From Planctomycetota bacterium (GTDB taxonomy: Bacteria; Planctomycetota; Planctomycetia; Pirellulales; JALHPA01), in the NCBI GenBank assembly GCA_034440595.1, contig JAWXCH010000189.1:1-53919 (forward strand): a stretch of DNA of 53,919 bases, in the 5' to 3' direction. A model generated the notes under the pieces. That model did no database searches and had not been told where the DNA came from. It was given only the letters and a program-made list of their open reading frames with translations. Below are positions 17,279 to 46,485 of the stretch, one piece after another; the first letter of the stretch is position 1, and each line of letters begins with the position of its first letter. Both the position numbers and the translations under genes were made by a program.

Positions 17279-18709
17279 TTACTTGCTCGCAATTTGAAAC
17301 GCGTACAACGTGGCATTCTGCAAATGAAATCGCAATCGAACGATCTGGCCAGTAAGCGACGACAGGTCGGCTGAATCTTTCCACTTGACCGATAGTCGGA
17401 TATCATCCTTCTGGACAATTGGCTTCGCCTCGGTCTGGGTGAACCCAGCCAACGGCTTACCGTCACGGTCTAATACTTCGACCAGACATCGGCCGCCCTG
17501 ACAGTCGACATTGATCAAGAGGTCGGCCCCGTCAAGTTTAAATGGCCGTGTCGTCACAGCGCCCGGTTCGGCCTTCGCCTGCAACCCTACGAAACGGTCC
17601 AAGGGCAAGGTCGCGAGACCAATCGCGCGGTCTTTTTCGGGCAGAAAGCTTCCCTCGCCGTGGCGCTCGTTGCCGCCAACGTAATACAGCCAGTGCTTAT
17701 TATCATGGGTTGCGATCTGTGAACTGGGGAAAAGAATGTCCTTGTCAAATGCGCTATCTCCCCCCCGGGGGATAAGTGGTTGTCCGGAGTTGATCCACTG
17801 CAAATCCCATTTGTCGCCATCGCGGCTGGTGCATATGTAATAGTTCATCACGTCCCGCTCATGGCGTCTGACGTGGTCCGTCTTTTCGCCTTCGCTAAAG
17901 TCGCCAGGATACTCGTAGACTGATGCAATTCCAAAATGTACGCCTTCATAAATCCAATCAGTCAGGGCATACACTTGCCGGCGCTTCGGGTCGTCGAGTT
18001 TCCAACTACGAATCAACTTCCAATTTGTTGGATTCGTTTTCACATCGCTGTTGGTCATGCTTCGGGATCCGCGAATTTCGCCCGGCCCCCCGCCCGTACC
18101 AAAATCGGTGCGTGTGAACAGCCGGTAAGTCTTAGCAGCTTCATCCCAAAGTATTTGGTTGTAAGTGTCCGGCGCGCGTCCCGTAACTGCTTTGCCATTG
18201 TTGTAGAGCTGCCAATGGATACCATCCTCCGAATAGGCCAGCCCCGCGCCCACATTATCGGCGTCAAAAGCCGCTTTGTAGCGATGGCGAGGATCGCTTT
18301 CGTGCTCGTCGATCGTCACCGAGTACGTCGGACCTGGAATGCCGGTGACATCGACCGGCTCGCTGAATTTCAGACCGTCTCGCGATTCGGAGTAGGCAAA
18401 ACCTATCTGGCCGGGTTTAGTAAACCACATTCTAAACCGGTCGTTGTCGAACACGACTGTGCCATAAAACCAGCGGTCAGTGACGATCGGTTTCCCGTTG
18501 TTAGCTTTGGTGACGTGTCCTAACACGCGCTCTACGTTGGATGTGTCGGCAACCGCAAGATCGTCAACCAGCAACTGCTTTTGCAAGCCAATATTGGCAA
18601 GTTTTTCTTTGTCGGCCGCTAAGGTTGGGAGGGCTGTGCAACCTAAAATTACTATCGTAAATAGCCGACGGCAGATAAAAGTCTCATTGAAACTCAAGTG
18701 GATAGGCAT
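17279..18709 (-). CDS. Secreted beta-propeller + beta-sandwich glycosidase-like protein (paralogue A1, family unassigned)
   Basis: Signal peptide (RRLFTIVILGCTALPTLAADK). Asp-box-like blades (SEDGIHW, SRDGDKW), [10 protein letters not shown], and C-terminal VRLRFHLQNATLYAFQI. Roughly two-thirds identical by eye to aa 242-681 of the gene at 21503-23842. Confidence 0.75.
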   Translation of the reverse strand: MPIHLSFNETFICRRLFTIVILGCTALPTLAADKEKLANIGLQKQLLVDDLAVADTSNVERVLGHVTKANNGKPIVTDRWFYGTVVFDNDRFRMWFTKPGQIGFAYSESRDGLKFSEPVDVTGIPGPTYSVTIDEHESDPRHRYKAAFDADNVGAGLAYSEDGIHWQLYNNGKAVTGRAPDTYNQILWDEAAKTYRLFTRTDFGTGGGPGEIRGSRSMTNSDVKTNPTNWKLIRSWKLDDPKRRQVYALTDWIYEGVHFGIASVYEYPGDFSEGEKTDHVRRHERDVMNYYICTSRDGDKWDLQWINSGQPLIPRGGDSAFDKDILFPSSQIATHDNKHWLYYVGGNERHGEGSFLPEKDRAIGLATLPLDRFVGLQAKAEPGAVTTRPFKLDGADLLINVDCQGGRCLVEVLDRDGKPLAGFTQTEAKPIVQKDDIRLSVKWKDSADLSSLTGQIVRLRFHLQNATLYAFQIASK

Positions 18710-18822
18710 ACAGTGAATGAGCGATCGGGATTAGAGTTCAAATCAAAACTTAAAAACTACCGCTATGTTCCTACTGCGACATCATGCAGCGCCGATCTTC
18801 CTGGCTTAGCCGATTGACTATT

Positions 18823-44597: not shown

Positions 44598-44880
44598 GCA
44601 GAATTCGAATATAGCCCGTTAAACTTTTTATAGCAACAGAATTATTAAATGGTAGTTGAAAAATTTTTCCCTGCTTGGTAATATTTGTGCATCGCTGGAA
44701 GGCGATTTTCACGGTCGAAATCTCTAGCCCGTGCCAAAGATTTTTAACAACCAGTAACCTACTGCCGGGCAGGATGCGGGCCCCTCCCAATTCCTCGAGC
44801 CGCCAAAGCAACGCAAGGCGCTCGCAGATGTGGCACTTTGTGAGAGACACGAATCGACACTTCTGAAGGACCCGCACGTA

Positions 44881-46485
44881 ATGACTTCCACTTCGAACCC
44901 GGTATTTGACAGGCGTCATTTTTTGGCGAGTGCTGCATGCAGTGGTGCGGCGATGCTCGGGACCAATACATCGGCCCTTGGCAGTCCCACATTGACATGC
45001 CCTGACGATGTTGCGAGCGGTCACTATAGCGCGCCCTCCAACGCGGAAGTCACTGGCATTGATCCGAATGAGACCGTGTTGTTTGCGTTCGACGAACATT
45101 GGATTCCCTTTCGTCAATCGTTATGTCTCACCTTAGAACCGCCAAAGCTCTGTGACCAGAACCCTGTCCTGGGCCGGGGGGGCGAAGGCGAGCCGGACAG
45201 CTTTTTTGCTTCGCTCTACGGCACGGTGATACGGCAGCACGATCGGTTTCGGATGTGGTACTGCGCCGTCGACAGCTTGAAGGAATTTCACCCGGGCCGA
45301 ACCAATATGCGGCTTGCTTATGCCGAAAGCACGGATGGCACCCGTTGGGAGAAACCAAATCTGGGGCTGCGTGAGTATCGCGGGAGCAAGGATAACAACC
45401 TCTGCGCCTTGGACCGTGAATGTTACAATTCGCCCCTAATACTATATGAGCCGGAGGAGCCAGACCGCCGTCGCCGCTTCAAAATGGCATTTGTTGGCTA
45501 CCACCACCAGGCCCGGCCCGATATGCCCCTGCTGTGCACGGCTTTCAGTCCCGACGGCCTGACGTGGACTGAAGGCGCCAATCCGGTCATCGACAAAAAT
45601 TGGAGTGAGCTAAGCGGCATTTATCGCTGGAATAACATCTACTACGTAAATGGGCAAACCAGTTGGCCACCGGAGAACCCAAAACGATCGATGATAAATT
45701 TTGCTTCAGCCGATTTCACACATTGGCAGCAACCCGGAAGCATCAGCTTTTGGAGACATGATCTGAACAAGCGGTCCAGCTTTAACGTAGCAGGATCGCA
45801 AGTGCACCTGGGCGCTAGCATCTGGCATCGTCGCAACGTGCTACTCGGCTTGTACGGCCAATGGGAAGCACCCGAAGGAGCCCAGAATCCCGATGTCCGG
45901 ATGAACTTGGGGCTCATTATCAGCAACGACGGTGTCGTTTTTCGCGAACCAATCCCTGGCTTCCCCTTTATTCCGTGGGGTAAAGAGCGATCGGATTGGA
46001 AAACGATCCGACTGCTGCAGGCAAATGCCTTTGTTAACTATGGAGACACGACTTACATCTGGTACGGGGGTGCAAGCGATGAAACCGGCAAGAGCATTGC
46101 AATTGAAAACAACGCGGAAGTAGGTCTGGCAACATTGCCGCGGGACCGGTTCGGCTATTTGCGTCCCACAGCTGCCGATGCAATCCTTATCAGTCAGGAG
46201 TTACCCGCGAGCGATGGCACCGTCGAAATTGCAGTGAACGTCGAAGGTGTCGACAAATTCGCCCGGCTGCGAATTGAACTCTTGGACGGTGCGTTTCGGC
46301 CGATCAGCGGGTTCTCGGGCGAGGAGTCCGGGTTGGTGATGGAGAGTAGCCTTCGTTCCCTAGTAGCGTGGAAGAGGGGCACTTCTGCGACCATAAATGG
46401 CACCTATCGCATTCGCGTCGCCTTCGAGGGAGAGCAGGTCGAAAATATCAAACTCTACGGAATATACGCTTTGCCGAAAGCATAG
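44881..46485 (+). CDS. Tat-exported beta-propeller + beta-sandwich glycosidase-like protein (paralogue B3)
   Basis: Twin-arginine leader MTSTSNPVFDRRHFLASAACSGAAMLG. FRMWYCAV, STDGTRWEKP, SPDGLTWTEG, ATLPRDRFGY and C-terminal IRVAFEGEQVENIKLYGIYALP. Confidence 0.8.
   Translation: MTSTSNPVFDRRHFLASAACSGAAMLGTNTSALGSPTLTCPDDVASGHYSAPSNAEVTGIDPNETVLFAFDEHWIPFRQSLCLTLEPPKLCDQNPVLGRGGEGEPDSFFASLYGTVIRQHDRFRMWYCAVDSLKEFHPGRTNMRLAYAESTDGTRWEKPNLGLREYRGSKDNNLCALDRECYNSPLILYEPEEPDRRRRFKMAFVGYHHQARPDMPLLCTAFSPDGLTWTEGANPVIDKNWSELSGIYRWNNIYYVNGQTSWPPENPKRSMINFASADFTHWQQPGSISFWRHDLNKRSSFNVAGSQVHLGASIWHRRNVLLGLYGQWEAPEGAQNPDVRMNLGLIISNDGVVFREPIPGFPFIPWGKERSDWKTIRLLQANAFVNYGDTTYIWYGGASDETGKSIAIENNAEVGLATLPRDRFGYLRPTAADAILISQELPASDGTVEIAVNVEGVDKFARLRIELLDGAFRPISGFSGEESGLVMESSLRSLVAWKRGTSATINGTYRIRVAFEGEQVENIKLYGIYALPKA

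Follow-up and report, generated by a model that had tools for sequence, protein, structure and literature searches.

What do five related genes, set within 30 kb of a planctomycete genome, encode, and do they belong with the catabolic genes around them? The question is raised by contig JAWXCH010000189.1 (assembly GCA_034440595.1) of a Planctomycetota bacterium, whose 53,919 nucleotides we analysed as a whole (the window). An initial annotation of this DNA had singled out five paralogues of an unassigned exported family that combines a beta-propeller with a beta-sandwich, three of them each at the head of a catabolic block. We named the genes A1, A2, B1, B2 and B3 in window order. A1 (17279-18709, minus strand) encodes 476 residues with a hydrophobic N-terminus, a five-bladed propeller and a C-terminal beta-sandwich. 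A2 (21503-23842, minus) encodes a multidomain protein of 779 residues, in which the propeller and sandwich core spans residues 237-681 (21800-23134, minus). B1 (28306-29772, plus; earliest possible start at 28165) encodes 488 residues with a hydrophobic N-terminus, B2 (40340-41779, plus) 479 residues with a Sec-type signal, and B3 (44881-46485, plus; alternative start at 44830 in the list of open reading frames, ORFs) 534 residues with a twin-arginine-like N-terminus, DRRHFLA. With moderate confidence, we read all five as exported enzymes that hydrolyse glycosidic bonds and belong to an unclassified branch of the GH43/32/130/117 superfamily, with catalysis and mechanism still putative.

The homology of the five proteins is far above chance level. 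In blastp comparisons A1 and A2 are 56% identical over 445 residues (E=0), less than the two-thirds that had been estimated by eye, and B1 and B2 are 42% identical over 450 residues (E=4e-119). Identity between A1/A2 and B1/B2 is 24-30% (E 1e-25 to 5e-31), and that of B3 to the other four is 24-26% (E 6e-9 to 1e-21). We built hidden Markov models (HMMs) of the subfamilies from about 100 homologues per type. The subfamily A model matches A1 with 741 bits and A2 with 691 bits (residues 238-683), the subfamily B model matches B1 with 583 bits, and the model of a third subfamily, C, matches B3 with 620 bits; matches across subfamilies among the five proteins have E-values of 1e-19 to 1e-58. When the window was scanned in six frames with these models, exactly these five ORFs and no other were retrieved. 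The ORF list, blastp and the HMM scan thus bear out the claim of five ORFs with one architecture, and the strings said to be shared are indeed present in the translations and in the five-way alignment: LL(V/L)D near the N-terminus, (F/Y)(K/R/H)(M/C/L)W(Y/F/W), repeats of S-x-D-G-x-x-W, ATLP.DR(F/W), and RLRF...A.LY.F near the C-terminus. The proposed division into two subfamilies, of two and three members, holds for the pair A1/A2 but not for the grouping of B3 with B1 and B2. Since B3 is equally far from B1/B2 and from A1/A2 and has a large orthologue set of its own, we distinguish three subfamilies (A, B and C), i.e., a split of 2+2+1. The closest relatives of each paralogue lie outside the window, in other organisms (69-82% identity). 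We therefore rejected a recent tandem duplication: the five seem to be old paralogues that were brought or kept together.

To which fold do these proteins belong? We modelled B2 and B3 with AlphaFold2 from family alignments (pLDDT, the predicted local distance difference test, 91.8, and pTM, the predicted template modelling score, 0.88 for B2; 87.2 and 0.86 for B3) and assigned the blades from the predicted strand order. Both models begin with a short pair of strands at the N-terminus, continue with five blades of four strands each and end in a C-terminal beta-sandwich of about 100 residues, which confirms the propeller and sandwich architecture of the initial annotation. Foldseek searches of the PDB gave as top matches only carbohydrate-active five-bladed propellers (probability 1.00, E down to 1e-12), from GH43, GH32, GH130, GH137, GH159 and GH183 and including the GalNAc deacetylase of F. 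plautii. The matches at E<=1e-3 numbered 172-173 PDB chains, and among the top 50 listed almost all are five-bladed members of the GH43/GH32/GH130 superfamily. As modelled, B2 and B3 have the fold of the five-bladed furanosidase/GH130 superfamily (GH43, GH32, GH62, GH68, GH117, GH130). A Foldseek search of viral structures returned generic propeller and tail-fibre matches only, which have no bearing here. Identity to every solved structure is low, 7-19%. Profile searches of PDB sequences led to GH130, GH117-like proteins, GH32, GH117 and the F. plautii deacetylase (E 3e-7 to 1e-3), always as partial, blade-sized matches.

The proteins resemble several known groups, each in a different respect. 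The best Foldseek E-values (1e-12 to 1e-10) belong to the two-domain enzymes of GH43 and GH32 (8HCJ, 3PIG, 1UYP, BT1760), which like the family combine an N-terminal five-bladed propeller carrying short Asp-boxes with a C-terminal beta-sandwich. However, they are only 7-13% identical to it, and the superposition of whole chains (root mean square deviation 13-20 A, template modelling score, TM, 0.3-0.47) indicates that the domains are packed differently. Superposition of the propeller alone is best for GH130, GH137, GH159, GH183 and the F. plautii deacetylase, and GH130 comes first (9FJ8, 7FIP, 5A7V; TM on target 0.68-0.71). Blade I of the family is also GH130-like in sequence, NP(V/L)L ... (F/Y)(N/G)..V ... 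(F/W)Y ... YA.S.DG..(W/F), with a profile E-value of 3e-7. Yet GH130 is only 14-18% identical to the family and lacks both its C-terminal beta-sandwich and its N-terminal LLxD strand. Moreover, phosphorylases are typically cytoplasmic, whereas the members of this family are exported, and phosphorylase activity is unlikely for exported proteins. The GH117-like Zobellia proteins (4U6B, 4U6D) and the GH117 anhydrogalactosidases are matched by profile over one or two blades (E 6e-7 to 6e-5), but only some 60 residues align and these proteins are not among the top structural matches. The F. plautii deacetylase (6N1A/6N1B) has five blades with repeated S.DG..W motifs (Foldseek TM on target 0.57) and is the top PDB sequence match of the subfamily B profile (E=2e-6), with several blades aligned, including RYDMLSPTIVYD against RFDNLYANVIYD; it is, however, 14% identical to the family and is a deacetylase, not a glycosidase.

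None of these resemblances amounts to membership in a described family. In Pfam and NCBIfam the core of the five proteins and of nine homologues went unmatched, and wherever a source names a relative the name is "hypothetical protein", so that the family is unassigned, as had been stated. The only traces in these databases are an HpiC1-like domain and a sub-threshold PEP-CTERM match in A2, and, in B3, a sub-threshold Tat match and NF052550; the precomputed Pfam matches add a faint one to PF22847 (Glyco_hydro_43_rel). We rejected GH43 (PF04616), which the five proteins fail to match at E<=1 and the nine homologues at E<=10. GH32 (PF00251/PF08244) is unmatched in Pfam, and a regular-expression search found the WMNDPNG, RDP and EC(P/V) blocks in none of the paralogues, in agreement with the missing WMNDPNG-type block of the initial annotation. 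For GH130 (PF04041 and the NCBIfam equivalogs) the sole trace is NF052550, beta-1,2-mannobiose phosphorylase, with 13.5 bits in B3 against a cut-off of 450. For GH117 we found only matches of 40-60 residues, the size of a blade (4U6B, 4U6D, 3P2N), none of them full-length. The GH33 sialidase/BNR propellers were also discarded: the family has five blades and not six, its S-x-D-G-x-x-W motif is shorter than their S-x-D-x-G-x-T-W repeat, and the BNR models of Pfam match only within sialidase domains fused to some homologues. Failure of all the GH43, GH32, GH130, GH117 and GH33 sequence models, together with at most 19% identity to solved structures, points to an unclassified family within a known superfamily, although a numbered CAZy family that has no structure or Pfam model could already cover it. 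In the literature on PF22847/Glyco_hydro_43_rel and on new five-bladed glycoside hydrolase families of Planctomycetes and Verrucomicrobia we found no description of this family.

Conserved residues offer candidates for an active site. Each subfamily has its own set of Asp, Glu or His residues that are at least 93% conserved. In the merged alignment the three subfamilies have in common the Asp-boxes, the N-terminal LLxD, an invariant R-x-K in blade II (R188/K190 of B2) and the LPxDR linker. An Asp ahead of blade III (D224 of B2, D181 of A1) and another ahead of blade V (D337 of B2, D322 of A1) are common to subfamilies A and B; before blade I lie D106 in subfamily C and D87/N88 in B, and E243 of C lies at the start of blade III. 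The candidate catalytic residues would be D87/N88, D224/N227 and D337, and also H172, in B2; D181, D189 and D322/D324 in A1; and D106, E243 and H309 in B3. Their placement just before the innermost strand of these blades (I, III and V) relies on the order of the predicted strands and not on coordinates; this entry to the innermost strand is also the position of the catalytic residues in GH43, GH32 and GH117. The GH43 triad consists of an Asp in blade I, an Asp in blade III and a Glu in blade IV. In the family, acids conserved within subfamilies precede, by strand order, the inner strand of blade I (D87 of B2, D106 of B3) and that of blade III (D224 of B2, E243 of B3); the start of blade IV has no conserved Glu (Q/E277, Y/H279). 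The short Asp-boxes, S-x-D-(G)-x-x-W/F, number three to four in each of the five proteins and follow strand 3 of blades I-IV in both models. This motif has been described for the propellers of arabinanase, levansucrase and invertase, where it is thought to be structural (PMC2716378), and it is thus uninformative on catalysis; propellers of the GH32/GH43 type usually have one to three (PMC2716378).

The family is large. A census with a profile of the five paralogues against 1.84 billion representatives, counted as clusters at 50% identity, gave 3,028 clusters at E<=1e-30 and 9,473 at E<=1e-10, and word-indexed searches returned 1,238 relatives for B2, 480 for A1 and 356 for B3. The top match of the census, a protein of 5,844 residues (P0361), is not a member: it is a giant array of short Asp-box blades of about 60 residues, in which the blade I-II part of the family HMMs matches at more than 50 separate places. 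In species-representative genomes, almost all of them metagenome-assembled, B-type genes occur in Planctomycetota, Poribacteria, Acidobacteriota/Terriglobia, Verrucomicrobiota, Chloroflexota, Calditrichota and other phyla. By its own gene content (a DUF1559 gene, PEP-CTERM tails, dockerin-like segments) the window looks planctomycete-like or PVC-like. Roughly one representative in four has several domains, with fusions to GH33-type sialidase, DUF1080/3-keto-disaccharide hydrolase, LamG, HEAT repeats, alpha/beta-hydrolase, esterase, nucleoside hydrolase, GHL10, GDPD and lactonase domains. A family of at least 3,000 clusters that has no Pfam or NCBIfam model, solved structure or name is a sizeable blind spot in the annotation of carbohydrate enzymes. 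It concerns phyla to which the breakdown of recalcitrant marine and soil glycans is attributed, as well as some polysaccharide-utilisation loci (PULs) of Bacteroidota. With a single activity assigned, thousands of genes would be re-annotated, and either a new glycoside hydrolase family or a chemistry new to this fold could emerge. The family is of value for enzyme discovery more than for any unexpected mechanism. The window does not by itself reveal the substrate, but is a good entry point, with all three subfamilies present. The metagenome Ga0163153, which contains a copy of part of the window, also has a 15.7-kb contig, Ga0163153_10005150 (L097, 6905-8380), with a C-type member 34% identical to B3.

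Members of the family are often encoded side by side in other genomes. For the survey of neighbours we pooled 161 other loci (1,429 ORFs, 214 family genes). Two to four members were present in 19 of 76 genome loci that reach 8 kb to either side of a B-type gene, and in 19 of 77 metagenome loci found through the C-type alignment. One locus has the order C, C, B, B in tandem (L110), and another has a B3 orthologue of 60% identity with two A-type genes within 14 kb (L085). In a human gut contig (L163, 373-7761) a SusD gene is directly followed by an A-like gene, a B-like gene, a PKD/PQQ propeller and a third member. This is a textbook PUL with family members in the enzyme slots, which extends the family to Bacteroidota-style PULs of the human gut. 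A PQQ-type propeller precedes a B3-type gene in a further locus (L166), and one B3-type gene adjoins a GH114 gene and a TonB-type outer-membrane barrel. Clustering of paralogues is thus a general habit of the family and not specific to this window, where five in 30 kb lie at the high end of the common range. The tandem mixing of subfamilies provides an experimental handle on function. Translational coupling of tandem paralogues was considered and dropped: the 4-bp overlaps that suggested it arise from choosing the earliest start, and database gene calls give a gap of 14 bp (L001).

Export, claimed for all five, is borne out by a hydrophobic N-terminal segment in 85-89% of the members of subfamilies A and B. 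The additional claim that each paralogue uses a different route fared less well. B1, listed as unclear, has a clear hydrophobic N-terminal segment and is therefore probably exported too, and the Tat signal of B3 and the PEP-CTERM anchor of A2 are both below the cut-offs of their models. The Tat call on B3 comes from the DRRHFLA motif only, since the Tat HMMs stay sub-threshold (E 0.82 and 0.19); an RRx[FL] motif is present in 25 of 111 members of subfamily C. In A2, PF07589 scores 17.8 bits against a cut-off of 20.7 and TIGR02595 13.8 against 16, and the anchor is suggested by the VPEP-hydrophobic-RRRRR pattern seen by eye and by a homologous tail on the product of 18823-19926.

Taken together, the superfamily fold, the export, the glycan-related fusion partners and the enzyme slots in the SusD-led cluster suggest that these proteins hydrolyse glycosidic bonds at the funnel of the propeller. 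The glycan-degrading role proposed in the initial annotation is plausible on the same grounds, namely the fold, the fusions (sialidase, DUF1080, LamG, GHL10, esterase) and a SusD-led cluster with at least three members. Also in its favour are two regulators that flank B2 and B3 (41900-44597, minus), one of AraC-HTH and one of GntR-HTH (helix-turn-helix) type, with sugar-sensor domains of the periplasmic-binding-protein type. The proteins would be exported to the periplasm or the cell surface. The five-bladed propeller would be the catalytic domain, cleaving at its central funnel, and the beta-sandwich would support it or contact the substrate, as in GH32 and GH43. Terminal residues might be removed from complex glycans, possibly acidic, amino-sugar-containing or sulfated. 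Subfamilies A, B and C may have different specificities and act jointly on one heteroglycan, which would explain why their genes are so frequently side by side.

Several observations weigh against glycoside hydrolysis. The placement of the candidate residues on the funnel face follows solely from strand order. No catalytic pair was found across the family: in the merged alignment the Asp and Glu residues common to the three subfamilies occur only in the Asp-boxes, LLxD and LPxDR. The search for invariant acids proposed in the initial annotation thus yielded acids conserved at the level of subfamilies but no acid pair conserved in all three, a result that fits different specificities and also leaves room for other chemistry. 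Neither the position of the catalytic Asp of GH130 nor the signature blocks of GH32 and GH43 are recognisably kept, and in the HMMER alignment the YRATD segment of GH130 falls on residues that the family does not conserve. The top PDB match of subfamily B at the sequence level is a deacetylase and not a glycosidase. Finally, the neighbours are heterogeneous: the roughly 140 immediate neighbours of each locus set fall into 111 and 124 Pfam families, and many members sit amid housekeeping genes.

The genes around the paralogues in the window are the following. Downstream of A1 (10798-17161, minus) are DHDPS-like, two PhyH, Gfo/Idh/MocA, SDR and Amidohydro_3 (D-aminoacylase-like) genes. Downstream of B1 (29799-38897, plus) follow a GntR-FCD regulator, hydantoinase A, an Asp/Glu racemase, hydantoinase B, a class-V aminotransferase and a HEAT-SSF transporter. 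B2 lies between a gene of the 3-hydroxyacyl-CoA-dehydrogenase (3HCDH) type and the two regulators. The block downstream of B3 (46526-52112, plus) encodes a pyridoxal-phosphate (PLP) enzyme resembling D-threonine aldolase and D-Ser dehydratase, an Amidohydro_2 protein, RidA, an HpcH/HpaI aldolase, an SDR and a second Amidohydro_2 protein. Judged by its family names, this block might convert an oxidised (amino-)sugar to pyruvate. The top NCBIfam match of its PLP enzyme is BhcC, far under the cut-off, and none of the block enzymes of the window reaches an NCBIfam equivalog threshold. Of the claim that three paralogues head such blocks, the co-directional blocks stand, but A1 is not a unique head: the minus-strand run in fact begins at 24747 and ends at 10798, and A2 as well as A1 lies within it. 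Scans for promoters and terminators gave counts at or under the shuffled expectation, and their only usable item is a terminator-like hairpin at the stop codon of B2 (41770-41785). Rfam and tRNA scans of the window found nothing, and so provide no riboswitch hint at a ligand.

Could the same fold carry out another chemistry? The proteins may be carbohydrate-modifying enzymes other than glycoside hydrolases, e.g., metal-dependent de-N-acetylases, lyases or transglycosylases. We consider this rather unlikely, but because the closest sequence match of subfamily B is a propeller deacetylase, de-N-acetylation or another non-hydrolase activity is a real rival. That deacetylase is also among the ten best Foldseek matches, all three subfamilies keep one or more nearly invariant His residues in addition to Asp residues, the Tat-like signal of subfamily C could reflect the loading of a cofactor or metal before export, the window is rich in genes for amine and amide catabolism, and GH114, which adjoins a B3-type gene, is a polygalactosaminidase family. 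Nevertheless, the similarity to 6n1a is no better than that to GH130, and the amine-catabolism neighbours do not recur in other loci. Alternatively, the proteins might be non-catalytic, glycan-binding or scaffold proteins of the cell surface, akin to propeller lectins. The acid pair that is not conserved family-wide, the frequent fusion or adjacency to true enzymes (sialidase, esterase, GH32) and the predicted cell-surface anchor of A2 are in line with such a role. Strong conservation of charged residues within subfamilies, in loops predicted to be on the funnel side, argues against it (subfamily A keeps TRTD..GG..E.RG.R, PGD.SEG..D...RH.R and NERHG), as do the positions in the SusD-led cluster, normally held by enzymes, and the nearest structures, which are all enzymes. 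A purely binding role is the least likely of the readings considered, and we regard it as very improbable.

On the model of the initial annotation, the 30 kb would act as one co-regulated supercluster for the use of polysaccharides: every paralogue would free a different monomer, to be consumed by the block that it heads. We consider this account, as a whole, rather unlikely. The co-directional blocks, whose gaps are short (26 bp behind B1, 40 bp behind B3, 117 bp behind A1), and the presence of MFS and SSF transporters fit it, as does the B3 block, which looks coherent for a beta-hydroxy-amino or sugar acid if its pathway logic is correct. Its best element is the link of B3-type genes with HpcH, RidA and amidohydrolase, partly conserved and the only neighbour link with independent support: the single 60%-identical B3 orthologue with long flanks (L085) has three HpcH genes, RidA and an amidohydrolase together with its two A-type copies. 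Gfo/Idh/MocA genes recur in 13 of the 161 loci, always within 4 kb of a family gene and never further (13/803 nearby genes against 0/323 more distant ones), which is a modest signal. The HpcH aldolase is found in 5-7 other loci, and SDR, PhyH, DHDPS, MFS and SSF in a few each. In contrast, hydantoinase A/B, DAO-type oxidases, the Asp/Glu racemase, D-Ser-dehydratase-like enzymes and M19 occur in 0 of the 161 loci, so that the claim of one pathway for each paralogue is left with a partial B3 link and the recurring Gfo/Idh/MocA and HpcH genes and loses its hydantoinase, oxidase and racemase links. We found no conserved link between the B1 block and the family. The A1 block is not kept near close A1 orthologues (73% and 54% identity), whose neighbours are unrelated or housekeeping genes, although its Pfam families recur near family genes elsewhere. 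B2, flanked only by the dehydrogenase and the regulators, looks monocistronic, and the enzymes of the blocks all remain under their equivalog thresholds. B2-type genes of Terriglobia and Poribacteria adjoin RecA and alanine racemase, and the link of 3HCDH to B2-type genes was set aside as local synteny with these two genes in related genomes. Among single neighbours sulfatase is the most frequent (13 of 81 loci). Since sulfatase genes are very numerous in these phyla, we did not count this as an enrichment; it is probably not above background. A bolder proposal is that A, B and C form a new CAZyme family of obligate partners, as a hetero-oligomer or a fixed relay, acting on a substrate class so far not connected with propeller glycosidases, such as glycans of amino or acidic sugars, and that C feeds a new oxidative pathway of amino-sugar acids. 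That route would run from an SDR to an Amidohydro_2 lactonase, then to a D-threonine-aldolase-like PLP dehydratase with RidA, and end with the HpcH aldolase. We hold this to be more doubtful still than the supercluster.

A2 carries accessory parts on both sides of its core. Its N-terminal domain (23159-23719, minus; residues 42-228) has a weak HpiC1-like match, similar to carbohydrate-binding modules (PF22825, E=6e-5, below the cut-off). It is 51% identical (blastp E=1e-70) to a PEP-CTERM protein of 249 residues encoded just upstream of A2 (23998-24747, minus), which exceeds the PEP-CTERM cut-off with 26.2 bits. The module thus exists both free-standing and fused. The C-terminal tail of A2 (21506-21799, minus) consists of a dockerin-like segment and a PEP-CTERM-like anchor, VPEP...RRRRR (about 21572-21643). 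A LamG_3 protein (18823-19926, minus) has a tail 42% identical to that of A2, with dockerin-like repeats GDY(D/N)xNGxVxAADYVxWR followed by the PEP-CTERM-like anchor. The longest ORF of a DUF1559/N-methyl pseudopilin-like gene (20608-21591, minus) shares 89 bp with the end of A2, and its true start is probably an internal Met; DUF1559 genes are near family genes in seven other loci.

Further observations concern other genes of the window. The gene at 36420-38897 (plus) encodes a sodium:solute symporter with fused N-terminal HEAT repeats. Elsewhere, a family homologue is itself fused to HEAT repeats (P0049), and an SSF gene of 31% identity adjoins three family copies (L077). The Asp/Glu/hydantoin racemase gene (32558-33349, plus) is inserted between the genes for subunits A (30395-32542, plus) and B (33267-35072, plus) of a hydantoinase/oxoprolinase; nearby are a divergent DAO-type oxidase (26998-28329) and the class-V aminotransferase. 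By its gene content, this region looks like a catabolic unit for lactams or cyclic amides. At 5812-10775 (plus) there is a set resembling heterotetrameric sarcosine oxidase, with a beta-type DAO, an alpha subunit that contains GCV_T domains and what may be a gamma subunit, unmatched in Pfam; a gap of 247 bp (7056-7303) might hold the small delta subunit. Upstream of this set are genes for an M19 dipeptidase, an NAD epimerase and a cupin protein.

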